NCBI RefSeq assembly: GCF_008065095.1
Contig: NZ_CP042911.1
Coordinates: 2,730,001 to 2,762,000 of the forward strand
Source: Gemmata obscuriglobus
Lineage (GTDB): Bacteria > Planctomycetota > Planctomycetia > Gemmatales > Gemmataceae
Length of the DNA: 32,000 nucleotides
Reading direction: 5' to 3'
The translations under genes were made by a program, and so were the position numbers. The notes under the pieces are model-generated. The model was not told the origin of the DNA. It made no database searches and saw only the letters and a program-made list of their open reading frames with translations. Shown one piece after another: positions 3,522 through 30,978 of the stretch (position 1 is the first letter of the stretch; each line of letters begins with the position of its first letter).

Positions 3522-3566
3522 GTCGGGCCGGCGGGATTTGAACCCACGACCTCTTGCACCCCAAGC
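3522..3566 (-). repeat. attL: 45-bp copy of the 3' part of tRNA-Pro (distal end of the integrated element)
   Basis: gtcgggccggcgggatttgaacccacgacctcttgcaccccaagc is identical to 20719-20763. There is no 5' half of a tRNA next to it, so it is not a gene. Confidence 0.92.
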
Positions 3567-4405: not shown

Positions 4406-6676
4406 CTACTGACCGATCGTGTCCTTAATCTTGTCGAACTCAGGCGTGTCGGTCTTGTCGTCTCTGACCTTCCGTTGGCGCTTTGGCTTCTTCTCAGGCG
4501 GAGGAGGCCACAGAGACCCCAGGAAATCACGAATGTATGGCAAATCGATAGATAGCAGCTCGTGGTCGGTCATCGCAGCCCCAATCAGCTTTTCACTGTC
4601 CCCCATTGTGGGTAGTCGGTGAACCATCTCCTGTAGTACGCCGAAAAGGATGCCAGTCGTCGAGAACGAGCCAGAAGCTACACCGCTGAGGGACTGCTCG
4701 ATAACCATCCGCCATCTCAAGAAGCGAGCTTCAAGTTCATCAATATCCGGCTTCGGAGCCGTTTTGCTGGCCTTGAGCATTTCTCGCAGCATTGCGGAGA
4801 GAAGCTCAGTGAACGCGGCGAAATTCTCCTTGCTCCAAAGAGCTTGTGCCTGCACCGTCTCGGCATGAACTGCGGCCTCTGTGTCCTGAATTCTGAGCCG
4901 CCGGATTAGATCCTCCACAGCCGATACAGGAAACGCAGAAAGCCCTTCTCGATTCCAACGGCCGGGTTCTGGCTCTGGCATCTTCCACCCAGAACTCGTC
5001 GTAAAAGGACGGTGCCGTTTTTTCCCGTCCGGTAGATCCAGAGGAATCTGTTCTGTAGCCCACTCCAGAAGCTCGACAGCCTGTTGAGCGGGAGTGAGCT
5101 TCAGCACCTTCGGCGCAGGCTCTTCCCCCTCCGAAGCCGGGTCAAGGGCCACAATGACTAGTGCACGGGAAAGGCGGCTGGACTTAACACGTCGTGTAGA
5201 CCTCGGTTCCTTCTCGTTGACAAGGCCTCGATACCGCTCTGGGATTTCGCAATCCCCGATTTTAACAACGGCGTACTCCACAGCGATTCGTTGACGAGTG
5301 TTGCGGCTACGCAGCCTTTTCCCAATGCTGCTAAATTGCGATCCGTGAACAATCGCCGCATAAATATTCCATCCACCGACGTCTTTATGGTCCGGTGCGT
5401 GATCCAATTCGCCCTTACGAACAAGCGGGGCGTTGGTAATAATTGGGTCCAGCTCATCGGCCCACGCCCCGACGCAGCGGTATAGCCAAGCCAGCCACCG
5501 ATTCTGGTTGTAGTCGTGGCATTCCTCGCAGGTCCATCTCCGACACTTGAACGCCGCAACCCCGCTGTTGTCGCTGACATTCGTAGCGGGTTTACCCTGC
5601 AAGACTGCATTGGTTGTGCAATGGCAACGTCGTTCTTGCTTCTTCTCCGGTTGTTCGACCGGCAGCGTTCGAGCAATTTGGCAGGTCGAGAGCAGGTCAT
5701 TGGCAAACTTTGCCCCGATATTCTGCCAACGGTCGCGGCGTTCGGACCCTTTTGCCTCTCTCGCAATCGCAATCTTCAGCCAGTCACGAGCGTCCTTCGC
5801 ATTCCTGTTCGTGTCTGGAACGACGGCGGGCGCAATGCACCACGATATCGGCCGTCCCATTTTGGCCGCGAGTTGCCGAGCTGTCGCGATGGCGCCCGTT
5901 CGTCCAGGCCACAGCCGCCGGCTCGCGCTCTTTGGAGTTCGCCGAAGGTCGTTCTCGCCTACAACCACAATCTGCCGGTCGGGTGCAACGTGGCGGAGTA
6001 ATTGTGCCAAATCATCAACACCCCCAACGTTCGACGGGCGACCGATTGCGGGTAGACCCGCGGCCGACATGGCCAGCACATCGCTCCAGCCTTCGACCAG
6101 AAACACCGGCCCGCTTCTGTCCTGCCAACCGGCCGGAACGGCAAGGCCACGTGACGTGTCTCTCTCCTGCCACTTCTCCCCGGCTGTCGAACGGAAATGA
6201 ATGCCGACGACACGGCCTTCACCGTCGTACTCGGGGAAGCTCCACGCTCCCGCGCTTCGTGATTTCCCTTTTGATCCGCGAGGCTGTGCTTTCCAACCGA
6301 GCAGAGGAACGTATTCAGAGACCCACCTCGGGAGCCCCAAATGAGGCGCCAGTTGCGCCCCTTGCTCGGGCGACAAGTTCGCGGCGTACTCCTGAGCCAA
6401 TGGCAGTACGCTGTCACGCTGGCGAACGTGCTCGGGAGCGACAAAGCTCGGCGTGGGGATGCCTTCACCATCAAGACGGTGAAGCATGAAGTCGCCGATC
6501 TTCCCGGTTCGTCGTTTCCCCCTTCGACCGGTTGTCGGGTTGTGAACGCCTCGCGTCAGGTCGTAGCACATCAGCCACGAGCCGTCATTCGTTCGTTGGC
6601 ACCGCGTTTCTGCACCGCAAAGTGGGCATGGGTTGCGGCGTGTAAATGCGACCCAAGTACGGTTTGATTGGCTCAC
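4406..6676 (-). CDS. Primase-like replication protein with an N-terminal Zn-ribbon, a TOPRIM domain and a large uncharacterised C-terminal half
   Basis: 756 aa with a GTG start. CPLCGAETRCQRTNDGSWLMC looks like a P4-type primase zinc ribbon. VFLVEGWSDVLAMSAAGLPAIGRP...IVVVGENDL looks like TOPRIM (EG ... acidic motif). The C-terminal half carries a KCRRWTCEEC Cys cluster. No Walker A motif was seen. Confidence 0.65.
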   Translation of the reverse strand: MSQSNRTWVAFTRRNPCPLCGAETRCQRTNDGSWLMCYDLTRGVHNPTTGRRGKRRTGKIGDFMLHRLDGEGIPTPSFVAPEHVRQRDSVLPLAQEYAANLSPEQGAQLAPHLGLPRWVSEYVPLLGWKAQPRGSKGKSRSAGAWSFPEYDGEGRVVGIHFRSTAGEKWQERDTSRGLAVPAGWQDRSGPVFLVEGWSDVLAMSAAGLPAIGRPSNVGGVDDLAQLLRHVAPDRQIVVVGENDLRRTPKSASRRLWPGRTGAIATARQLAAKMGRPISWCIAPAVVPDTNRNAKDARDWLKIAIAREAKGSERRDRWQNIGAKFANDLLSTCQIARTLPVEQPEKKQERRCHCTTNAVLQGKPATNVSDNSGVAAFKCRRWTCEECHDYNQNRWLAWLYRCVGAWADELDPIITNAPLVRKGELDHAPDHKDVGGWNIYAAIVHGSQFSSIGKRLRSRNTRQRIAVEYAVVKIGDCEIPERYRGLVNEKEPRSTRRVKSSRLSRALVIVALDPASEGEEPAPKVLKLTPAQQAVELLEWATEQIPLDLPDGKKRHRPFTTSSGWKMPEPEPGRWNREGLSAFPVSAVEDLIRRLRIQDTEAAVHAETVQAQALWSKENFAAFTELLSAMLREMLKASKTAPKPDIDELEARFLRWRMVIEQSLSGVASGSFSTTGILFGVLQEMVHRLPTMGDSEKLIGAAMTDHELLSIDLPYIRDFLGSLWPPPPEKKPKRQRKVRDDKTDTPEFDKIKDTIGQ

Positions 6677-8545: not shown

Positions 8546-8652
8546 CACGCTGATCTCGATCTCTTCCCCGCTTCTGTTGACTGATGCCGGACGCATAAAT
8601 CGGCCGACAGCGTTGGAGAGGTGTTCGCAGGATACAAGCGAGCCGCTTCACT

Positions 8653-8760
8653 CTGCCCGAAATCGAAGTGTGGCCAAAAAGGGGCGACTTAGTCAGATAG
8701 TAAAGAAGCCTGTCATCTGACTAACTAACCCCATTTCGGCCACACTTCGATTTCGGGCAG
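8653..8760. repeat. 108-nt compound perfect hairpin (23-bp outer stem plus 10-bp inner stem)
   Basis: ctgcccgaaatcgaagtgtggcc (8653-8675) pairs perfectly with ggccacacttcgatttcgggcag (8738-8760). ttagtcagat (8689-8698) pairs with atctgactaa (8715-8724). The structure is intergenic between the XRE and methyltransferase genes. Confidence 0.85.
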
Positions 8761-8788
8761 AACGTTTTCCGGCACTACCGAAGGCTGC

Positions 8789-9724
8789 ATGGCCGACCGT
8801 TCTTGGCCCGCCGCAGGCGTAAAGATTTACCGATTATCGCGAATCGGAGCGACGATGCTGGGGTACTTGAGGCGTGCATGGACCACGTGGCACGCGAAGT
8901 CCGACTTCATTGCTTCCATCCGGCGTAATCCCTCGCACACGCTCTTTTATGCGGCCGAGTTGCAGTTTCCAGAGCTTCAAGAAGTATGGGAAACCGGCGG
9001 CCCGGAGCTTCAACCGTACGAAGGATTGGCGTCAGCGTGGGACGAATACGGCTCCTGCAATCAGCCAGATTATTTAGGATTGATTAAATTTTTATCTGAT
9101 CGACATTCTATCGAGTTGCGATCGGTCCTTGATCTCGCGTGTGGTACCGGGTTACTGACAGCTCGACTCGTCCGCAGCTTCAATGAAGTGGTCGGACTGG
9201 ACGCCAGCCCGCGCATGCTGGAGGTCGCGCGGGCACGCCTGGACGGTTGCAAAGGCGCAAGCTTCGTTTTTGGCGATTTCCGCACGTTTTCGCTAGGACG
9301 TCAATTTGATGTTATTGTTTGCACATTTAATTCGTTAAATTACCTGGGCGACTTGAATGAGTTGTCGGGCACCTTTGCCGTGGTGGCAAAACACCTCACA
9401 CCCGGCGGCATCTTCGTTTTTGACGTTACGACCGAGCGGTCGATGCGCGAGCGGTCCGGCCTGTACGCCCACGTCACCACAAACGCATTCCGGTTCGCGC
9501 TTTACTCCAACTACGACCGAAAACAGCGGAAACAAATCTCACGGGCTATCACGCCGACCGGAATCGAGTTACACCGACGAATCCCGATCAGCCTGCAGGA
9601 CGTGAAGACGGCAGCCCGTGAATCCGGCTTGCGTGTTGAAGAGTGCTTCTCTCCGAGTCTCATTCCGGTCCGCTGGCTTGAAGGGTACGCCTCCTTTTTC
9701 GTTCTTACGAAAGCGCCCGACTGA
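8789..9724 (+). CDS. Class I SAM-dependent methyltransferase (small-molecule/protein type, no obvious DNA-MTase motifs)
   Basis: VLDLACGTGLLT is motif I. FDVIVCTFNSLNYL and LTPGGIFVFD are the post-I motifs. An alternative ATG lies at 8855. The gene contains AT-rich stretches compared with the flanks. Confidence 0.75.
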   Translation: MADRSWPAAGVKIYRLSRIGATMLGYLRRAWTTWHAKSDFIASIRRNPSHTLFYAAELQFPELQEVWETGGPELQPYEGLASAWDEYGSCNQPDYLGLIKFLSDRHSIELRSVLDLACGTGLLTARLVRSFNEVVGLDASPRMLEVARARLDGCKGASFVFGDFRTFSLGRQFDVIVCTFNSLNYLGDLNELSGTFAVVAKHLTPGGIFVFDVTTERSMRERSGLYAHVTTNAFRFALYSNYDRKQRKQISRAITPTGIELHRRIPISLQDVKTAARESGLRVEECFSPSLIPVRWLEGYASFFVLTKAPD

Positions 9725-9801: not shown

Positions 9802-10755
9802 TCACCGTGCGATTAACTCGCCCTGATCGACCGTCGCGGCCGTTGCCCCCTTCCGGCCCACAGCAGACACCTTCCTGAGCTTCCCGAGAACGGCCCGCCG
9901 ACTCTCCCCGAGCAGTTCGGCCGCTTCGTCAATTGTGAAGTCGCGTGCGAGCAGGGCCTTCACGACTGTCCGGGTGTCGTCGTCCAGGCGGGCCAGCTCC
10001 GCGGTGAACCCGTCCGCCCGTGCGGCTTCGTCAAGGTGGTTCACGACCTGGGCGTTCACCGCGAGGTGACTTCGCTTGCGGTTCAGTTCGTTCGACCGCT
10101 GGCGTTGTTCCGCGGGCACTTTCGATGTCGTGGCGTTGTCGATCTCTTCCGCGCTCACGGCGTGTTGCGTGAACCCGATGCGACACAGCGCCCGCACCGC
10201 GGCCTTCAGGTTGACCCGCACCGACTTGAGCGGGTGACCGAGCTGAACCGCGATCTGATCCGGGGACAGCCGGTCGAAAACAACCAGCTCGACTAACCGT
10301 CGGTGCCCGGCCCCGAGCTTCGACAGCACACCGCCCGCGAGCGTCCGCCGCACCTCGGTTGCCAGCGTGCCCATCGTCTCGTCGTCGAGCGGTTCGTCAT
10401 CCTCGGTGTGGTGACCTGACGGCGCCTGATCCTGTGGCCATGCGAACTTGTCGAAATAGTCGCTGTCCTTGTTCCGAATCGACCCGTCGTCTTCGTGGTG
10501 GTGGTTCGCCTTCCAGTTCTTCAGCGTGTTCTTCATCACCCCGATCGCATACGTGGACCACTTCACGCCGCGGGTCGCGTCGAACTTCTCGGTCGCCTGC
10601 CACACCGCGACTTGAACATCCTGCTCGACGTCCTCGCGGTGCCGCGGGACGATTCCCGAGCACCGCACTTCAGCCCCGATGGCCTTCTGTACCTGCATCA
10701 GCATCGCTTCGCGTTCGGCCTTGGTGCGCGCAATGGTCGTTGCTGTCGCGGTCAT
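9802..10755 (-). CDS. Element-encoded sigma-70-family (ECF-like) sigma factor with an extra C-terminal region-4-like HTH
   Basis: EDVEQDVQVAVWQATEKFDATRGVKWSTYAIGVMKNTLKNW looks like region 2. RRLVELVVFDRLSPDQIAVQLGHPLKSVRVNLKAAVRAL looks like region 4. A second similar segment is TRTVVKALLARDFTIDEAAELLGESRRAVLGKLRKV. Confidence 0.75.
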   Translation of the reverse strand: MTATATTIARTKAEREAMLMQVQKAIGAEVRCSGIVPRHREDVEQDVQVAVWQATEKFDATRGVKWSTYAIGVMKNTLKNWKANHHHEDDGSIRNKDSDYFDKFAWPQDQAPSGHHTEDDEPLDDETMGTLATEVRRTLAGGVLSKLGAGHRRLVELVVFDRLSPDQIAVQLGHPLKSVRVNLKAAVRALCRIGFTQHAVSAEEIDNATTSKVPAEQRQRSNELNRKRSHLAVNAQVVNHLDEAARADGFTAELARLDDDTRTVVKALLARDFTIDEAAELLGESRRAVLGKLRKVSAVGRKGATAATVDQGELIAR

Positions 10756-11353: not shown

Positions 11354-11508
11354 GACCGAACCTCATGGATGGGTGGAGCGGTGAACGGTCCGGCGAGTGG
11401 AACGGGACCGGTGACGGTAGAGGTTCTTGGGTCATGGGCGCCGCGGACAATGGGGCTTGGCACCGGGCGGCGCGTCAGTCATGCTGAGGTGAGTTCAGAG
11501 GGGAAGTG

Positions 11509-12306
11509 ATGACGGAAGCGGAATGGTTGACGTGCGAAGATGCTGAGGCGATGTTGGAACACCACCACCGCGCTCCTGATCGCAAGTTGCGACTCTTCGC
11601 ATGCGCGTGTTGCCGCTTAGCTTGGGAGTGCATTCCGCCCGGCTACTACCGCAAGCTTGTCGCCGTTTGCGAACAGTTCGCGGATGGGGATCTTGGAAAG
11701 GGAATCGTTGACCTCGTCCGAAAGCGGGCTCAGAGCGAACCTGTCCAACGCGATGGGGTCGCGCAAGTGCCTCACGCCGCACTCGCAACGGTTCAGCCCC
11801 TCGCGTGGTTGGCTGCTCGCGATGCCTTGCGGACCGCCACTGCCGCCACGTGCCAACGGGCTGTTTACACCGCGAGCGTCGGTGAGCCCGATCTGTCGTC
11901 GCCTGTCAGTGTTGCGGCGGTTCAGGCATGGCAGGAGGACTACAAACGGACGGACGCGTGGAGCAGTTCAGGAAAAGTACCGTGGAACGATAGTCGCCTC
12001 GACGCCGCACGAGCAGCCGAGCAAGTTGCTCGCGCGACCTCGGGGCGGCTATTCGCTTCTGCATTACGCTGCGTGCTCTTCAGTACCTTCAGGAGCATCG
12101 AATTTGATTGGGCCTATCTCACCGCAACGACAGTCGCGATTGCACGCCAGATGTACGAAAGCCGCGACTTCAGCGCGATGCCGATCCTCGCGGATGCGCT
12201 GCAAGACGCCGGGTGCGACAACGACGACGTGTTGAACCACTGCCGCGGACCCGGGCCGCACGTTCGCGGATGCTGGGTTGTGGACTTGCTGCTCGGGAAG
12301 GAATGA
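11509..12306 (+). CDS. Hypothetical protein of a planctomycete/myxobacterial paralogous family
   Basis: ATG at 11509 (GTG at 11506) has GAGGGG upstream. It has the N-terminal EWLTCEDAEAMLEHH..DRKLRLFACACCRLAW motif and the C-terminal MPILADALQDAGCDNDDVLNHCRGPGPHVRGCWVVDLLLGKE motif. I recall both from many Gemmata-like paralogs. Confidence 0.7.
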   Translation: MTEAEWLTCEDAEAMLEHHHRAPDRKLRLFACACCRLAWECIPPGYYRKLVAVCEQFADGDLGKGIVDLVRKRAQSEPVQRDGVAQVPHAALATVQPLAWLAARDALRTATAATCQRAVYTASVGEPDLSSPVSVAAVQAWQEDYKRTDAWSSSGKVPWNDSRLDAARAAEQVARATSGRLFASALRCVLFSTFRSIEFDWAYLTATTVAIARQMYESRDFSAMPILADALQDAGCDNDDVLNHCRGPGPHVRGCWVVDLLLGKE

Positions 12307-12433: not shown

Positions 12434-12976
12434 TTAGACGAAGGCGAGGAACGTCGGCTTCCCGCTAATCTCGACCGTGAGTTCTATAGTGATGCGATTG
12501 TCTTCCGGAATCTCGACGGGGCTGGACTTGATGAACCCGGTGAGGAGCCAGATGCCGTTGTCCGGAAAGAACACGGCCCAACTCAGCCGGCCCCATTTCG
12601 GGTGCGTGTAAGGCGCGATGTTCGGGTCGCCGGCGGGCATCAGCGTTTGGAGTTTCGCCAGTAGCCCTTTGTTCGAGTTCAGGCGCAACGTGAGCTGCCC
12701 CGCGTCAAGGAACCCCGGGATCTTCTCCGCGGCCATGCCGGGTGAGCGCAGGTGCGTCAACGGCGTGACGCTCCGCTCCATCGGCACGCCGTTCAGGGAG
12801 ATGACGTCGCCCAGTTCCTTCCAGACCGCGGAGTTGTTGGTAATCGACAGGTGCGTGTTGTACGGCGGCACCGTGGGCTGGTATGGTGGTATGCCAGAAG
12901 GGCCGGTTGTCAGGGTCACGAAATCGGCGTAGTACAGGGCCGTATCGAAGCTGTTCATGCCGGTTGCGGCACCCAT
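12434..12976 (-). CDS. Putative phage structural protein, tail-tube-like (function uncertain)
   Basis: ATG at 12976 is preceded by GGGGAG, whereas the ORF track starts at a TTG at 12991. SVTPLTHLRSPGMAAEKIPGFLDAGQLTLRLN and the C-terminal ITIELTVEISGKPTF resemble conserved blocks of major tail (tube) proteins. It lies downstream of the capsid gene on the same strand. Confidence 0.45.
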   Translation of the reverse strand: MGAATGMNSFDTALYYADFVTLTTGPSGIPPYQPTVPPYNTHLSITNNSAVWKELGDVISLNGVPMERSVTPLTHLRSPGMAAEKIPGFLDAGQLTLRLNSNKGLLAKLQTLMPAGDPNIAPYTHPKWGRLSWAVFFPDNGIWLLTGFIKSSPVEIPEDNRITIELTVEISGKPTFLAFV

Positions 12977-13075
12977 GCGAGAACTCCCCAAGTGGTTACG
13001 ATCTGGGGAGGTTCTTGGACGACGAGGGACGATGTGAGGTGTTCGCGTTGCTGGCCAACACAGAACGTCGATGGC

Positions 13076-13225
13076 TCACTCAAAACACGGGGCCGCGAGT
13101 ACGATGTTGGCCCCGTCCACCGGGTTCGAGGTGCGTACGATCCAGGCGCGCCGGTACCGCTTGTTGGTGTCAACGTCCTTCGACCCGTCCCGGCCCGTGA
13201 TTTCTTGAACGAACACGACCGACAT
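13076..13225 (-). CDS. Possible 49-aa protein, below the ORF-track cutoff
   Basis: Hand translation gives MSVVFVQEITGRDGSKDVDTNKRYRRAWIVRTSNPVDGANIVLAAPCFE. There is a strong G/C third-position bias. It lies between the HEPN gene and the tube-like gene on the same strand. Confidence 0.35.
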   Translation of the reverse strand: MSVVFVQEITGRDGSKDVDTNKRYRRAWIVRTSNPVDGANIVLAAPCFE

Positions 13226-13287: not shown

Positions 13288-14316
13288 TTAGCATTCACGC
13301 AAATCGTTCATTAGCAGCGGATCATCGAGGTAATGACGCATCAATGCGGTAGTAGAACGGGTAATAAACTCCAGGGCGATGGCTGGAGACCTGAGGCAAG
13401 AGAACTCATTTGAGAAATTAGGCTTTGATCCGTGTGCAATGGCGCTGCGATATGAATATAATATCCTCCAAGACTGCACTTCCATTGTATGTTTATTTGT
13501 GCCCTTCACACCTAGCAAGTCATAAGGGATAGGCAGTTTGGAACGGTGGCCAACTAGTGCCATTTTCTTAGATACTTGATTTGTTAATGAATCTGCTGGA
13601 TTATTCTGGTCTGATTTATGGGCAATTAGTGATTCAATTATGGATACATACCCTAAAAACCGAAGTGCGGAGTGAGATGGTATACTGTCTAGTTGTGCAA
13701 ATTGTGTCAAGGCATTGGCGAGCCGGGGGATGGTGTCGCGCCCGGATTTTAATTTCGTGTACACACTTTTCATATCATCGATATCCGCCTCGGTAACATT
13801 GCAAAATACTTCGTCCGAATTCCAGAACGCTTCGCTATGGCGGGCTAAATTAGAGTATCCGCCGTAACAAGGGGCAGGGCTGCCAGGGAACGTGTGGACG
13901 ACCATTCCCATCTGTAGGCGGTTCTTTGTAAGAATTGTAGATTCAATAAAGTCAAAAAGCTGCCGGCTCGGTCCGTCAAAGTATACTACGTGATATCGCC
14001 ATTGATCTTGCGGGAGATTTTCTACAATTATGGAGCTATGGCTCGACGATTGCCTTTCCTCGCGCACGAACGTTTCATACGGATTCCGCAAAGGGAACGA
14101 GAACGCCCGCGGCGGGTATGTTAAAGCAAACGCCTTCTGTAGCGTGGCAAGTTCGTTAGGTAGAGCTCGGCGCAACTGAAGCCCATCGTCGATTTTGAAC
14201 GATCCATTAAGAGGAAGAGCCCCCAGATTAATCACTTGCGCGAATCCGGAACCATTCAGATCTGAATGAGCAGTAGTGGTAAATTCAATGAATTGCTTTT
14301 CTGATTCAATCATCAT
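13288..14316 (-). CDS. HEPN-domain protein (Rx4H motif), candidate abortive-infection/defence cargo
   Basis: 342 aa with an ATGATG start. The C-terminal SWRILYSYRSAIAHGSKPNF contains R-SAIA-H, which fits the HEPN Rx4-6H signature. The gene is visibly AT-rich: my hand count for 13561-13620 is 18/60 G+C, versus 43/60 at 14941-15000 in the capsid gene. Confidence 0.6.
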   Translation of the reverse strand: MMIESEKQFIEFTTTAHSDLNGSGFAQVINLGALPLNGSFKIDDGLQLRRALPNELATLQKAFALTYPPRAFSFPLRNPYETFVREERQSSSHSSIIVENLPQDQWRYHVVYFDGPSRQLFDFIESTILTKNRLQMGMVVHTFPGSPAPCYGGYSNLARHSEAFWNSDEVFCNVTEADIDDMKSVYTKLKSGRDTIPRLANALTQFAQLDSIPSHSALRFLGYVSIIESLIAHKSDQNNPADSLTNQVSKKMALVGHRSKLPIPYDLLGVKGTNKHTMEVQSWRILYSYRSAIAHGSKPNFSNEFSCLRSPAIALEFITRSTTALMRHYLDDPLLMNDLREC

Positions 14317-14458
14317 TTGTGGCCATGCCCTTTTTAATGATATTTTTTCTTGTTCTGCCTGGATTCTATCTTGTCGATGCGGTTTTTACAAGCAATTGCG
14401 TCATTGCTGTGCGAGACACTTTCTCAGAAAAGGAGGTAATAAGGTAGGAAAATATGGC

Positions 14459-14499
14459 GTCCCAGGCGAGCCAAAATCCCCTTTTGGCTCGCCTGGGAC
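14459..14499 (-). terminator. Perfect 18-bp-stem hairpin just downstream of the capsid gene
   Basis: gtcccaggcgagccaaaa (14459-14476) pairs with ttttggctcgcctgggac (14482-14499) around a 5-nt loop. It lies 23 nt after the capsid TAA. On the minus strand it is followed by gccatattttcc. Confidence 0.7.
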
Positions 14500-14522: not shown

Positions 14523-15857
14523 TTACGGATGCACGAGGTGCCGAATCGGTCCGGTTCCGGCGTTCAGGACTCGCGAGTCGGACCGCAAGAACCCGATGAA
14601 CCCGACCTGATCGAACTCCGCGTACCGCTCCTCCAGCTTCTTCAGCCGGAGCCCCCGCACGTCCCGAATCTTGAACTTCCGGAACGGCCCCGCGAGCATC
14701 GTCTTCGCCCCGCTCGCCGGCGCGCTGTCCATGTTCTGGTTAATCACGTACCGCACGCCCTTGATCTTGTCCGGGGCGCCGTTCTGGCCCTCCTCGAACA
14801 GGTACCGGCCCTGACCGTCCTTGAGCTTGCGGATGATGGCCAGGATGCCGTCATGGAACATGAGGCGGAACGACGGGTCGCGGCGGTACGCGGGATCGAC
14901 CGAGTGAATCAGGTCGATGATCTCGTCTGCCGTGAGTGCCGAACCGCTGGCGGCCGTCTTGCCGAGCTTGGAACCGGTCACCACGCCCTGCGGCTCGCTC
15001 GAACCGCGGCCGACGGTGAAGTGCCGGTTCTGCGCCCGCCCGATGCGCTCCCCGAGCAGTTCGCCCAGGAACGTATCCAGGTCGAATTCGGTATCGTCCA
15101 TCAGCTCGCTCGGCACCTTGACCATCTTCGAGCTGTACTTGTACGCGCTCAGCAGCGTGGTCCCGACCTTCGCGTCCTGGGTGCTCACCTCGCGGTTCTC
15201 GCCGATCAGCTCGCCTTCGTTGCTGGTGTCGTCGCTGGTCGGCCACGGCATCGGGGCGCCGTCGTCGGTGCGGAGCACGTCGGCCACCTCGCGCGGCCCG
15301 CTGTAATCCTTCAGCGCCTTCTCGATGGCCCCGGCGAACTTCCCGCCCGCGATCAGACTCGCCCCGCTGGACGGCTGTTGGGCCGACATGGCGCGGGATT
15401 GGGGTCCCTTGCCCGGGTGCCGATCCAGACGGATTTCGAGCACCTTGCGGTTCGGGTTCAGCCCCATCGTCCGACACGCCCGCTTGTGCGCGTCGGTCAG
15501 GTCGAACCCGTGCTGGCGACGGCACCACGCCTGCAACGCCAGGGACCGCATCTCTTCGGCCGCTTCGGCGCGGTACCGGCGGGTGGCCTTGTTGCGCATG
15601 CTCCGCGGCACCGTGTCTTCTAGGCCGGGGATGTTCCGGCGGTCGCCGGGTCCGTCCAGGATGGCGCCCACCTCGGCGGCCCGGCGCTGCGCCTCGATCA
15701 GGTCCGACTTCTGGTTGAACTCGGTGTTCAGCCGTTCCCACTGTGACCGCTCTTCGGCGTTGAAGTCGCGGCCCTCGGCTTGGAGCACGTCGGCCATCTT
15801 GCGAATCTGAACGCCGATCGGTGCCCGCTCTTCTTGCAACTGCTTGACGGAGGGCAT
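14523..15857 (-). CDS. Phage major capsid protein, HK97 family
   Basis: ATG at 15857 (MPSVKQLQEERAPIGVQIRKMADVLQAEGRDFNAEERSQWERLNTEF) opens a coiled-coil delta-domain-like N-terminus. The core block LLSAYKYSSKMVKVPSELMDDTEFDLDTFLGELLGERIGRAQNRHFTVGRGSSEPQGVVTGS matches the HK97 MCP signature. The overlapping ORFs 14454..15623(+) and 14851..15996(-) are shadow frames. Confidence 0.92.
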   Translation of the reverse strand: MPSVKQLQEERAPIGVQIRKMADVLQAEGRDFNAEERSQWERLNTEFNQKSDLIEAQRRAAEVGAILDGPGDRRNIPGLEDTVPRSMRNKATRRYRAEAAEEMRSLALQAWCRRQHGFDLTDAHKRACRTMGLNPNRKVLEIRLDRHPGKGPQSRAMSAQQPSSGASLIAGGKFAGAIEKALKDYSGPREVADVLRTDDGAPMPWPTSDDTSNEGELIGENREVSTQDAKVGTTLLSAYKYSSKMVKVPSELMDDTEFDLDTFLGELLGERIGRAQNRHFTVGRGSSEPQGVVTGSKLGKTAASGSALTADEIIDLIHSVDPAYRRDPSFRLMFHDGILAIIRKLKDGQGRYLFEEGQNGAPDKIKGVRYVINQNMDSAPASGAKTMLAGPFRKFKIRDVRGLRLKKLEERYAEFDQVGFIGFLRSDSRVLNAGTGPIRHLVHP

Positions 15858-17440: not shown

Positions 17441-18049
17441 TCAGTTGGCCATCGCCAGCATGACTTCGACGGCGCGGGCGCGGGCCTTAACCGCGGCGTG
17501 GCTGATGCCGCTCCGGGACTTGATCCACTCGTTTACTTCGGCCCGCACGCCCGTGTCGGTGGCCGTGTACGCGGGGAACGTGACCGGCCCAACGTCGTAC
17601 AGCTCGACCGCGTTCCGCTCCACGATGTACAGCCCGTCCACGTCGCGGTAGGTGTTCGAGACCGGGCGGAACATGAACGAGCTGCCCGTCACGTCCCCGC
17701 GGCGGATCGACTCGACGACATCCCGGCCCGCGGTCGTGTCAGGCGGGTCGATTTCGTACTTGAGCCCGCGCTGATCGGTCCACACGCGCAGGGTGCCGGC
17801 CCGCACGCGGCCAAGGATGTTGTCGTCGCGGTGGTTGAACAGGGCGCGCACGTCGCCCTCGCGAAGGGTCTTGTCGAAGGCGCCGGGCATGATCCGCTCA
17901 ACCATGTCCTCGAACATGCGGTATTCGGTCCCGGGGTCGGCCGGGTTGTAGAACACCGCGGCGTAACCGGTGATGACCGGCTTGCCGCCGCGGGTGTGCA
18001 GGTCGACCGGGAGCCCGCGCGCGTTGCGGGTGTAGAGGGGGTTCGGCAT
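17441..18049 (-). CDS. HK97-family prohead serine protease (peptidase S78)
   Basis: ATG at 18049 has GAGGTG upstream. ITGYAAVFYNP...ERIMPGAFDKTL..GDVRALFNHRDDNILGRV...WTDQRGLKYEIDPPDTTAGRDVVESIRRGDVTGSSFMF matches the conserved His and Ser blocks of prohead proteases. Confidence 0.9.
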   Translation of the reverse strand: MPNPLYTRNARGLPVDLHTRGGKPVITGYAAVFYNPADPGTEYRMFEDMVERIMPGAFDKTLREGDVRALFNHRDDNILGRVRAGTLRVWTDQRGLKYEIDPPDTTAGRDVVESIRRGDVTGSSFMFRPVSNTYRDVDGLYIVERNAVELYDVGPVTFPAYTATDTGVRAEVNEWIKSRSGISHAAVKARARAVEVMLAMAN

Positions 18050-18219
18050 CGTTCACCTCGGAAGTGGAGCAGGTGAACGGGATTCTTGGACGTCAGGTGA
18101 TTGTCCGGCCCGATGGTGCAGTGAGGACTAGCTGACCACGTTTTTCGTGGAGCCATTGACAAGATTGGGCGGCTAGCTGACACTTGGTGCTTAGACTTGC
18201 AGGAAATAAACACTTTTGG

Positions 18220-18315: not shown

Positions 18316-18978
18316 ATGAGTCCGCTAACGCCTGCCCAGATAAAAGATGGGATGATAAAGATACAAAGCAATTCTCGAGAATTAATCGAGGACGCTCGCG
18401 TTCTATTCGCAGCAAATCGCTTTGTTCGATCTTTCACCCTAGCCCATCTTGCGAGCGAAGAGCTAGCCAAGATCGGGATGCTATTTAGGGCTGGAATATT
18501 CACGATATGTGGAATTCCAGTTGACTGGAAATCGTTGCGCAAAAGGCTTGCAAATCACAAGAACAAGTTAAGGCTAGAGTCGCTATGGGGGATTTCGCAG
18601 CTTGAGCAATTCAGGAAAATGACGGGCAAAGACTTTGCAAATATGATTGAGAAAACATGCTTGCACAGAAACGAAATGAAGAATGCAAGCATTTATGTTT
18701 CAATTGATGGAAATCAATTTGTTGATCCTAAAGAGGTTATCACGCGCGAGAATGCGGAACGCGCAATCAAGCTTGCGGAGCGCTCCTTTACGGAAACGGG
18801 TGAAGTAATTGAATCGTATGCGTCCACACTCTCGAAGCCAGAAAGCGTTGCCCAAGAGATTTACTCAGACTACCATCGATTAATGCAACAAAGCCCTCAG
18901 GAAATGCTCGAATGCATGCGCGAAATGCAACATGCACTCGGCGAACTCATACGAACAAAGTCGGACAAGATGTCATAG
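18316..18978 (+). CDS. AbiV-like (HEPN-type) abortive-infection protein
   Basis: ATG at 18316 has GGGGAG upstream. ELIEDARVLFAANRFVRSFTLAHLASEELAKIGMLF and LANHKNKL resemble the AbiV-family signature. The gene is AT-rich: my hand count for 18661-18720 is 18/60 G+C. Confidence 0.6.
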   Translation: MSPLTPAQIKDGMIKIQSNSRELIEDARVLFAANRFVRSFTLAHLASEELAKIGMLFRAGIFTICGIPVDWKSLRKRLANHKNKLRLESLWGISQLEQFRKMTGKDFANMIEKTCLHRNEMKNASIYVSIDGNQFVDPKEVITRENAERAIKLAERSFTETGEVIESYASTLSKPESVAQEIYSDYHRLMQQSPQEMLECMREMQHALGELIRTKSDKMS

Positions 18979-19194
18979 CTACTTAGCCAGTAGTGCAATT
19001 ATCTCATCCCGCATTTCCTTTGGAAGAGTCGGCCACCGCGCCACGAGTCGGGCTAAATCGGTGTCCGTTCGGAGTTGTGTAAGCAGGAGTGCAATCTTCT
19101 CCATGTAACGGTCGCAAAAGCTTTCGGGACAGGGCTTTTGCGATGTCACCACATCTCTTTCGAAAAGTACGGTTCCTCTCGTTTTCGAGTTCAT
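18979..19194 (-). CDS. Small protein translationally coupled to the integrase
   Basis: Its ATG at 19192-19194 overlaps the integrase TGA at 19191-19193 as ATGA. The C-terminal motif is LARLVARWPTLPKEMRDEIIALLAK. Its stop codon directly abuts the stop of the convergent AbiV-like gene. Confidence 0.5.
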   Translation of the reverse strand: MNSKTRGTVLFERDVVTSQKPCPESFCDRYMEKIALLLTQLRTDTDLARLVARWPTLPKEMRDEIIALLAK

Positions 19195-20546
19195 CCGGTT
19201 TCACGTGCAATTCGCTTTCGCACTGCGCTTTGCGGGTCAACGTAAATGGTGCGGGCCACTTCTTCCGAGTCCCCGATGACCGCCGCCGCCGCCGAGTTGC
19301 TTTCGTAGATCCTCATGACCTCGGTGGCGCGCGAGTGCCGGAGCTGGTGCGGCGTCCACGGCTTCACTCCGGCCCGCTTGCAGGCGTCCTTGACCCGGTT
19401 CCCGTAAGTGCCGCGTCGAATCGGTGTCGGCGGATCGGAACCGACAGCCGGGTAAATGAACACGAGGTCGGTGGCCGACTTGCCTTCGAGCAGGGGCGCG
19501 AGGATCGCTTGCGCCTTCGGGCCGATGAAGTACTCGAGTTCCTGTTCGCGGTGCTCGTTCTTGTGCGTGTCCGGGACGTAGCGCCAGACGTCTTCGGTGC
19601 GGTCCAGGTCGCCGGCCCGCATCGACACGAGGTCTTCCGGTCGGCCACCGAGCCACCAGTGAACACGCACGAGCGCTTCGAGAACAGCCCGGCACGCTTC
19701 GTTCTGGTGCAGGTGCGGGAACACGGCTTCGACGTTGGCCCACGGTGCCGCGGTCTTCTTTGGTGTCTCACGGGCTTGACTCTTCCCCTTGATGAGACGC
19801 CCCACGGCCTTCAACTCATGCCACACGTTGGCGGGTACGAGCTTCCGTCCCACGCCCCAACCGAACATGTGGACGATTCGCGACTGGTAGCCGTTGATCG
19901 TGCTGCGTGCCAGTCCCTGCGAGGCCGGCTTACCGTTCCGCTTGGGGCGAGCCTCGATCATCGCCCGACGCACGGCCCGGAGCTGATCCGGACCGAATTC
20001 ATCGACCGTCAGTCCCGAGTGTGATTCGAGCAGGTAGGCCACCGCCGCACGCTGGGCGTGAATTTCCGACGTGAGCTTACCGTGCTTTCGATACCCGCCT
20101 TCGCCGTCGTCACCCTGTTCGCAGTATTCGAGCCATTGTTCGGCCAGCTCGCACACGAGAAGCGTTTCGCCCAACGGCACCGGGGACTTCTTCACGAGCT
20201 GGGTGGCCCACTCCAACTGAAACCGTGCGTAAGCCTGTTGCGCCTCTTCAGAGCCCCATTTCCCGAAGTAGCGAACGTTCCGCTTGTTCCCCATTTGCCA
20301 TTCGCAGTGAGCCTGCCCGGTGGCTTTGTGGGGCTTCATGCGAGGGCAGGGGCGGACCGACGCGACCGCGGGCTTGGAAGTCGGACGGAACCGGCGGTCG
20401 GGTTTCGTGCTGACGGCGTCGGCCACCGACCACCCGAGTTTGATTCGGGCGTTAATGGTCGTGACCGGCACCCCGTGCCGTTTTGACCACTCTTTGAGGG
20501 TGAGCGATTCAGCACCAACTGTGTACAGTTTCGGCGGGTTGGGCAT
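19191..20546 (-). CDS. int: Tyrosine-type site-specific integrase
   Basis: 451 aa. It has GGRPEDL (catalytic Arg block), HQLRHSRAT (H-x-x-R) and a downstream Tyr in ARTIYVD. It lies next to the tRNA-Pro att site. ORF 19089..20024(+) is a shadow frame. Confidence 0.9.
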   Translation of the reverse strand: MPNPPKLYTVGAESLTLKEWSKRHGVPVTTINARIKLGWSVADAVSTKPDRRFRPTSKPAVASVRPCPRMKPHKATGQAHCEWQMGNKRNVRYFGKWGSEEAQQAYARFQLEWATQLVKKSPVPLGETLLVCELAEQWLEYCEQGDDGEGGYRKHGKLTSEIHAQRAAVAYLLESHSGLTVDEFGPDQLRAVRRAMIEARPKRNGKPASQGLARSTINGYQSRIVHMFGWGVGRKLVPANVWHELKAVGRLIKGKSQARETPKKTAAPWANVEAVFPHLHQNEACRAVLEALVRVHWWLGGRPEDLVSMRAGDLDRTEDVWRYVPDTHKNEHREQELEYFIGPKAQAILAPLLEGKSATDLVFIYPAVGSDPPTPIRRGTYGNRVKDACKRAGVKPWTPHQLRHSRATEVMRIYESNSAAAAVIGDSEEVARTIYVDPQSAVRKRIARETG

Positions 20547-20718: not shown

Positions 20719-20794
<76 letters not shown>

Positions 20795-30690: not shown

Positions 30691-30978
30691 TCCAGTAGTT
30701 TCAAGTTCCAGGTTCCAAGTTCCACGTCAAGCCAAACGGCACACGGGCGGTCCGGAGCGGGTACCGAGTCCCATCGTTTCAAGTTCGCGCGGCCGTGGCG
30801 ATCGGCCGGGAGCCCAGAGCACGCCGAAGTTACACCGGCCTGCGGACGCCGACGGTTCGACCGTGGCTCGTCGAACCGTCGGCATCCGCAGGCCGGTGGC
30901 GCACGCACGTGACCAACTTGGAACGACTGGAGCCGGTTTCCACTTGGAACTTGGAACCTGGAATTTGAAACTACTGGA
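30691..30978. mobile_element. 288-bp MITE-like non-coding element with 34-bp terminal inverted repeats and a nested 27-bp-stem hairpin
   Basis: tccagtagtttcaagttccaggttccaagttcca (30691-30724) matches the reverse complement of 30945-30978 at 33 of 34 positions. The inner palindrome 30835-30861 with 30870-30896 matches at 26 of 27 positions around an 8-nt loop. The ORFs spanning it are low-complexity artefacts. Confidence 0.7.

Follow-up and report, generated by a model that had tools for sequence, protein, structure and literature searches.

An AT-rich gene in a phage-derived island

The region described here is a window of 32,000 nucleotides from Gemmata obscuriglobus (assembly GCF_008065095.1, contig NZ_CP042911.1, positions 2,730,001 to 2,762,000). 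It comprises a phage-derived island in which a gene of deviant base composition follows the gene for the major capsid protein. As the original prediction, made from the sequence alone, had stated, this gene, hereafter termed the target gene, is an open reading frame (ORF) for 342 amino acids, and the motif YRSAIAHG is found near the C-terminus of its product. Identical proteins are on record for the Gemmata obscuriglobus assembly GCA_000171775.1 and for a 9.03-Mb contig. The coordinates of all features are compiled in Table 1.

The target ORF has a G+C content of 46% (474/1029), whereas the capsid gene reaches 67% (954/1428), with 35 to 48 G+C in its 60-mers and a mean of 40. A recount of positions 13561-13620 gave 18 G+C in 60 nucleotides, exactly the value that had been counted by hand. 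Correspondingly, the 300-nt G+C profile runs at 0.44-0.49 within the target block as compared with 0.62-0.69 on either side, confirming that an AT-rich block lies beside the capsid gene. Since host-level G+C resumes directly 3′ of the target stop codon, the AT-rich unit consists of the gene and its 142-nt upstream spacer.

The block is separated from the capsid gene by a hairpin, which had been predicted as the capsid terminator. Its arms (14459-14476 and 14482-14499) are 18 nucleotides long and 100% complementary, as claimed. The hairpin lies 23 nucleotides past the stop codon of the capsid gene (14523-14525). Read on the minus strand, it precedes the T-rich tail CATATTTTCC, and the scan scored it as terminator-like. 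The occurrence of a perfect 18-bp inverted repeat in 32 kb lies far beyond chance. The spacer on the other side of the hairpin contains a promoter-like site. In agreement with the original prediction, the ORF list of the block does not contain an ORF resembling a minimal nucleotidyltransferase (MNT) or another antitoxin. An RNA antitoxin was considered and rejected, as neither tandem repeats nor a match to an Rfam RNA were found in the block.

The 3′-terminal 45 nucleotides of the tRNA-Pro(GGG) gene (20719-20763) are repeated exactly at positions 3522-3566, and the sequences flanking the two copies are unrelated. This attachment-site (att) repeat therefore delimits an integrated island of 17.2 kb, in which a tyrosine integrase gene adjoins the tRNA gene. 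Besides the HK97-type capsid protein, the island encodes a prohead serine protease and, downstream of the target gene, a weakly major-tail-protein-like product. Genes for portal, terminase and tape-measure proteins were not recognised in the island. The island is thus either satellite-like or the decayed form of a prophage, and does not amount to a prophage whose late module is intact. The proposal that the target gene splits the late module is for this reason only partly right: the gene is indeed inserted behind the capsid gene, but the module is a remnant that lacks the portal, terminase and tape-measure genes.

A second AT-rich cargo gene, coding for an AbiV-family HEPN protein, is located on the opposite strand between the genes for the prohead protease and the integrase, in a block with a G+C of 0.43-0.50. 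In the public-assembly locus L025 it is called with 220 amino acids, the longest ORF starting at 18184; in the same locus the capsid gene is called with 444 amino acids, the longest ORF reaching 15950. The island therefore holds two separately inserted cargo genes of the abortive-infection (Abi) type, the target gene and the AbiV gene. Being integrated at a tRNA gene and carrying capsid and protease genes together with two Abi-type cargo genes, without packaging genes, it resembles the defence-laden satellites of enterobacteria.

A related phage contig from IMG/VR (L029) shares with the window the capsid protein (54% identity) and the protease (~58% identity), and nothing else. Its large ORFs upstream of the protease gene occupy the usual terminase and portal positions, its G+C is uniformly high and there is no AT-rich insert behind its capsid gene. 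Taken together, the deviant G+C, the place between the capsid and tail-like genes, the terminator-like hairpin, the weak promoter-like site and the absence from L029 identify the target gene as horizontally acquired moron cargo of a phage-derived island.

A decoration, connector or assembly protein of head-tail morphogenesis could also be encoded at this place, between the capsid gene and the weakly tail-like one and on their strand, with the low G+C being incidental. Position is all that speaks for such a role. Against it, the protein does not match any PHROG, the strong terminator-like hairpin stands between the target gene and the capsid gene, and in the related phage L029 the capsid gene is not followed by a gene of this kind. 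Moreover, the protein family to which the target belongs was not found in 50,697 GenBank phage genomes, and its homologues reside in non-phage chromosomal and plasmid contexts of many phyla, where the capsid, protease, integrase and tail-like genes of the island were seen in no homologue locus. We therefore consider a morphogenetic role highly improbable.

Table 1. Features of the window and of the island within it (strand "." denotes features without orientation)
Feature	Position	Strand	Basis or remark
Target gene; two-domain protein of an apparently uncatalogued family	13288..14316	-	ORF list; ATG start, 342 amino acids
N-terminal alpha/beta domain, residues 1-166, fast-evolving (predicted)	13819..14316	-	AlphaFold2 secondary structure, pLDDT mostly 80-96
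C-terminal all-helical, HEPN-like domain, residues 176-342 (predicted)	13291..13791	-	AlphaFold2; domain-only model pLDDT 91
ESLIAH (E228 and H233), candidate HEPN helix-2 acidic residue	13618..13635	-	End of helix 217-231
YRSAIAHG, Rx4H motif, residues 289-296 (R290, S291, H295, G296)	13429..13452	-
AT-rich block, target gene and 142-nt upstream spacer	13288..14458	.	531/1171 G+C = 45%
Promoter-like TTGTAA-17-TAGAAT in the spacer, 47 nt 5′ of the target ATG	14363..14391	-	Consensus scan
Intrinsic-terminator-like hairpin after the capsid gene	14459..14499	-	18-bp stem, 5-nt loop, T-rich tail
49-amino-acid ORF just downstream of the target gene	13076..13225	-	ORF list; gene call in public assemblies
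Weakly major-tail-protein-like gene, downstream of the target gene	12434..12991	-	phrog_158 E=3.8e-7; no Pfam match
HK97-type major capsid protein, 444 amino acids	14523..15857	-	Pfam Phage_capsid E=8e-51, phrog_10 E=6e-55
Prohead serine protease, Peptidase_S78	17441..18049	-	Pfam E=1e-38
AbiV-family HEPN protein, second AT-rich cargo	18316..18978	+	Pfam HEPN_AbiV PF18728 E=3.4e-28
Tyrosine integrase, adjoining tRNA-Pro	19191..20546	-	Pfam Phage_integrase E=2e-9, phrog_1 E=6e-22
tRNA-Pro(GGG); its 3′ 45 nt (20719-20763) are one att repeat copy	20719..20794	-	ARAGORN, Rfam, exact repeat
att direct repeat, second copy, far island end	3522..3566	.	Exact match to 20719-20763
Sigma-70/ECF (extracytoplasmic function)-type sigma factor gene	9802..10755	-	Sigma70_r2 and r4 domains
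Methyltransferase gene of the island	8789..9724	+

A two-domain family with an invariant Rx4H motif

An exhaustive profile search for relatives of the target protein retrieved at least 1,370 representative clusters (50% identity) at E<=1e-3, including 794 at E<=1e-30; a word-indexed search yielded 14 relatives only. The members are almost all 300-340 amino acids long, match end to end and share the same two-domain layout. They carry no Pfam domains, and the source names that we saw read almost without exception 'hypothetical protein'. One full-length homologue encoded on a Nostoc plasmid, WP_104902456.1, bears the RefSeq name 'HEPN domain-containing protein' and aligns with the family profile at an hhalign probability of 100% over 313 columns. 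When the profile of the C-terminal domain was run against a set of 5.8 billion proteins in search of remote relatives with Pfam annotation, it returned unannotated family members only. Judged by these sequence comparisons, the family is previously uncatalogued.

The 21 genomic homologue loci belong to Ignavibacteria, Proteobacteria, Cyanobacteria, Actinobacteria, Verrucomicrobia, Planctomycetota, Bacteroidota and Deinococcota, a patchy distribution over phyla, and the family is present on three plasmid records. Together with two metagenome loci, these genomic loci make up a set of 23, in 21 of which the homologue is AT-shifted relative to its 10-kb flank, by up to 0.185.

The AlphaFold2 model of the full-length protein (predicted local distance difference test score, pLDDT, 88.9; predicted template-modelling score, pTM, 0.88) divides the protein into an N-terminal alpha/beta domain and an all-helical C-terminal domain. 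The order of strands and helices in the N-terminal domain is mostly that of a beta-meander, not beta-alpha-beta, and relatives of this domain were found neither in Pfam nor in the PDB or BFVD. Thus, the original prediction was right in that the N-terminal region matches nothing recognisable; its size, put at roughly 230 amino acids, is rather about 166. Proteasome subunits retrieved by Foldseek for this domain were dismissed as noise (probability <=0.2, TM-score <=0.18). The mean pairwise identity is 22% in the N-terminal domain as compared with 43% in the C-terminal core, so that the rate of evolution of the former is roughly double that of the latter; the best-conserved residues of the N-terminal domain are A51, E81, W106 and Y108.

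Conservation was counted in 54 diverse family members. Ten residues, E228, S243, K251, L254, W283, Y287, R290, S291, H295 and G296, are invariant in 54/54, and all of them lie in the C-terminal domain; H233 and Q247 are kept in 98%. R290 and H295 with their x4 spacing are also invariant in the 14 close relatives, as a HEPN assignment of the motif had led one to expect. Residue 342 (13291-13293), the last one of the protein and part of a conserved C-terminal EPxLxxDLKxC tail, is a cysteine in 87% of the 54 members.

In HEPN proteins, the Rx4-6H motif is found where core helix-3 ends and the loop to helix-4 begins, in an all-alpha up-and-down bundle, and the residue after the arginine is usually N, D or H (Anantharaman et al. 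2013, PMC3710099). The modelled C-terminal domain comprises helices 176-195, 197-211, 217-231, 244-258, 275-294, 311-331 and 333-341. In its predicted secondary structure the end of helix 275-294 bears R290, the next loop opens with H295, and helix 311-331 follows; a helical insert (244-258, 265-268) lies between the helix carrying E228 and the motif helix. The predicted position of the motif in the all-helical domain agrees with the canonical place, and its composition, R followed by a polar residue, any residue, an aliphatic residue and A-H-G, is broadly that of HEPN motifs as well.

Profile libraries point in the same direction when the 54 members are searched individually. The Pfam family HEPN_MAE_28990 (PF18737) was matched weakly by 5/54 members (best E 7e-4), and two CARF_HEPN models of PADLOC by 12/54 and 3/54 (best E 6e-4, range to 1e-2). 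In two members that we inspected, the matched stretch includes RSxxxHG and corresponds to the last ~47 of the 382 positions of a PADLOC CARF_HEPN model. Weak individually, these matches in two libraries appear to be convergent. The commonest weak Pfam match among the members is however MauJ (9/54), and the family consensus matches MauJ alone in Pfam (E 0.016-0.05), over the E228-H295 region. A literature search on whether MauJ is related to HEPN came back empty.

Proposed function and comparison with known systems

To describe the setting of the homologues, 116 genes within ±3 positions were surveyed with Pfam and PADLOC. Toxin-antitoxin (TA) and Abi genes are among them (MazF twice, HicA twice, AbiEi/AbiEii, AbiV and AbiJ_NTD4), as are type I and II methyltransferases, SoFic, mad2, PDC-S32, PDC-M34A/B, Imm33 and an integrase. 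No neighbour family is conserved among the 23 loci except for one chance pair, and the Pfam matches listed for homologue neighbours contain no MNT family; the claim that an antitoxin partner is lacking thus holds beyond the target block. Genes of 333 and 329 amino acids that adjoin homologues in loci L001 and L030 were considered as tandem paralogues and proved unrelated to the family. The picture is that of a solitary, horizontally mobile gene, often but not always located among conflict genes.

From these data we infer, with somewhat more confidence than doubt, that the target gene is cargo for a self-contained two-domain protein, in which a divergent HEPN ribonuclease (RNase) domain would act as a solo Abi effector and the N-terminal domain as its sensor. 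The pattern of a variable N-terminal domain beside a conserved C-terminal core counts in favour of such a division into sensor and effector. A defence role is plausible in view of the AbiV co-cargo and of the TA, Abi and restriction-modification neighbours of the homologues.

In this scheme, which is modelled on other solo HEPN effectors such as HepS of Gifsy-1, expression of the protein would be constitutive and driven by the AT-rich region upstream of its gene. At rest the protein would be held inactive as an oligomer, with the N-terminal domain keeping the HEPN domain off. The N-terminal domain would sense a cue of infection, and most likely this would be an incoming phage's protein. Activation would then juxtapose two Rx4H motifs, and the C-terminal domain, acting as a metal-independent RNase with R290 and H295 as catalytic residues, helped by S291 and E228/H233, might cleave tRNA or mRNA. 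Translation would stop and the infection abort, which would protect the island as well as the clonal population of its host. A more specific version, which we put forward tentatively and hold to be possible rather than probable, is that the family is an uncatalogued group of single-protein Abi systems, in which an N-terminal domain of new fold recognises a phage late protein and releases the HEPN RNase, and with which, alongside AbiV, phage-derived islands keep out competing phages.

A number of results weigh against the proposed solo effector. The window protein itself did not match any model in Pfam, NCBIfam, PADLOC (PADLOC-DB 2.0.0, 0 families) or PHROGs, and every match of a member to a HEPN model is below the curated cut-offs. 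The top 50 matches of Foldseek searches in the PDB did not include a HEPN chain, either for the full model (best E 0.02, unrelated) or for that of the C-terminal domain (best E 0.94, generic helical bundles). The full model retrieved nothing from BFVD, and profile searches of PDB sequences with the full-length protein and the C-terminal domain did not yield a HEPN protein. The invariant S291 is polar, yet not the usual N, D or H, and the context of E228 is ESL[IL][TA]H and not Ex3[KR]. Furthermore, the family is absent from the phage genomes mentioned above and rare in IMG/VR, where 2 family loci, both AT-shifted, were found, and many neighbours of the homologues are housekeeping genes, for instance aconitase and thiolase. 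Finally, promoter-like sites are no more frequent in the region than in shuffled sequence (2 versus 1.9), for which reason the site in the spacer is weak evidence. The chance-level matches that the profile searches of the PDB produced, a zinc protease, fuculose aldolase and SidH, were discarded.

Several expectations of the original prediction were accordingly borne out in part. The predicted structure agrees with a HEPN fold in topology and motif position, and a match in the structure databases is missing; profile searches left the window protein unmatched and gave weak recurrent matches in some of the 54 members; and homologues do occur beside TA, Abi and restriction-modification genes, although many of their neighbourhoods consist of ordinary housekeeping genes. 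Membership of the C-terminal domain in the HEPN superfamily is in our view likely; since the Foldseek, BFVD and PDB profile searches gave no HEPN match, we do not rate it as demonstrated.

Alternatively, the C-terminal domain would be an unrelated helical bundle that uses its conserved R, S, H, E, K and Q residues for binding of a ligand or nucleic acid or for other chemistry, in a non-toxic regulator, an anti-defence factor or a modification enzyme. In accordance with this explanation, Foldseek did not retrieve a solved HEPN structure, significant profile or PDB sequence matches are missing, the top weak Pfam match is MauJ, a family of unknown function and not a named HEPN family, and the invariant S243, K251, W283 and Y287 as well as Q247 lie outside the canonical HEPN signature. 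On the other hand, two libraries independent of each other give weak but recurrent matches that point alike to HEPN models. The matches inspected cover the Rx4H motif, whose composition and helix-end position look canonical; RefSeq annotates one member as HEPN domain-containing; and Foldseek presumably performs weakly on helical bundles. Hence, we regard a bundle outside the HEPN superfamily as doubtful.

If the domain is a HEPN-type toxin, it may still serve the element and not defence. It would then keep the island or plasmid in the population, either by addiction or stabilisation or by arresting growth under stress, with the N-terminal domain as built-in inhibitor. All HEPN-like evidence applies equally to such a selfish toxin. 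Homologues reside on a mobilizable Nostoc plasmid amid PIN and other TA genes, others adjoin the TA genes MazF, HicA and BrnT, and a conserved partner gene is missing, so that any inhibition would have to be intramolecular. However, classical addiction needs an unstable antitoxin, which is not present, and the rapid evolution of the N-terminal domain would be better explained by an arms race against a variable trigger than by the role of a fixed internal inhibitor. Moreover, the co-carriage of AbiV and the precedent of HepS favour defence. We therefore judge the selfish alternative to be unlikely.

HepS (STM14_3211) of the Salmonella prophage Gifsy-1 is a solo HEPN Abi protein (Sargen et al., Nature 2026, PMC13043305). 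It has no inhibitor partner; its resting tetramer is inactive, is activated by a phage tail-tip protein and cleaves tRNA anticodon loops. Its motif is R100-H105, and homologues exceeding 250 amino acids in length or with further predicted domains were excluded by the authors (PMC13043305). Compared by description, the window protein is alike in being encoded by a single accessory gene on a phage-derived element, in its Rx4-6H motif and in the lack of a co-occurring partner, and presumably also in being inactive at rest. In contrast, it has 342 amino acids, an extra conserved alpha/beta domain of 166 amino acids and its motif at residues 290-295, and thus falls outside the HepS-like definition of <250 amino acids. 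A HepS-like chain was not among the top 50 Foldseek matches. By this comparison, HepS would be the closest functional precedent and the best model for the window protein.

By profile, the closest named family is that of the MAE_28990/MAE_18760-like HEPN proteins (PF18737). These combine the Rx4-6H motif with assorted N-terminal alpha+beta or beta-rich domains and are found in conflict contexts (PMC3710099). The matches of the five members mentioned above all remain below the Pfam gathering score, however, and neither the family consensus nor the window protein is matched. No ParB, methylase or ParA operon partner, as known from the MAE_28990-like family, is present. Pfam models exist for some of the N-terminal domains of that family, e.g., HEPN/Toprim-NTD1 and HEPN/RES-NTD1. 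None of the N-terminal domains with such models matched the window protein.

The CARF-HEPN proteins of type III CRISPR systems (Csm6/Csx1; PADLOC CARF2--CARF_HEPN) share the arrangement in which a sensor domain precedes a HEPN RNase at the C-terminus, but the N-terminal domain of the window protein is not a Rossmann-like CARF domain, did not match CARF and did not retrieve a CARF structure; cas, CRISPR or cyclase genes are not among the neighbour families listed. The lactococcal-type Abi proteins with HEPN domains (AbiD/F/J, AbiU2, AbiV) are likewise single-gene effectors borne on mobile elements. In AbiJ, the HEPN domain is coupled to variable N-terminal domains (PMC3710099), whereas the N-terminal domain is fixed across the window family and not swapped. 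Neither the window protein nor the 54 members matched an Abi family in Pfam or PADLOC. A relationship of the C-terminal domain with the AbiV protein of the island was also considered and rejected (hhalign probability 0.1%). HEPN-MNT systems, the type II/VII TA systems, resemble the proposed effector in having a small helical Rx4H RNase toxin and in being frequent on mobile elements, but they require an adjacent MNT antitoxin, and there is none here nor in the 23 homologue loci.

A single-gene HEPN effector in a phage island is therefore a plausible proposition. If it is correct, a sizeable, phylum-spanning and unannotated family would join the few HEPN defence proteins known to be self-sufficient, and the island would provide an example of defence cargo in Planctomycetota, the phage-host biology of which is, to our knowledge, little explored. 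HEPN effectors as prophage cargo are well established, so the advance would be incremental. As the N-terminal domain is without a detectable relative, its trigger could be sought experimentally.

Additional observations on the island and its surroundings

The sigma-70/ECF-type factor encoded by the island may be an island-specific transcription factor. Just upstream of the methyltransferase gene lies an inverted repeat (8652-8698 and 8715-8761) with 47-nt arms that are 89% complementary and a 16-nt spacer. An ORF for 266 amino acids on the plus strand (11506-12306), without a Pfam match, is located between the tail-like gene and a gene for 133 amino acids on the strand of the structural genes. 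By eye, the C-terminus of its product resembles the paralogous 'TIGR02996-like' proteins of Gemmata and planctomycetes, and the ORF may represent a further insertion into the remnant module.

Towards the att end furthest from the integrase, just downstream of a gene for a 66-amino-acid DUF1580 protein, the island encodes a protein of 756 amino acids (4406-6676, minus strand). This protein had no match in Pfam, in PDB sequences or, by tblastn, in the 50,697 phage genomes; it could be the replication protein of the island.

In the draft assembly ABGO01000003 (locus L024, 3486-4829), the capsid gene is split into ORFs of 297 and 112 amino acids. In other assemblies of the same sequence it is intact with 444 amino acids (L025, 4892-6226, corresponding to 14523-15857 of the window), and the split is either an assembly error or a frameshift decay at the level of the strain. 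Outside the island, a further inverted repeat with 29-nt arms, 97% complementary, and an 8-nt loop is present at positions 30833-30861 and 30870-30898.

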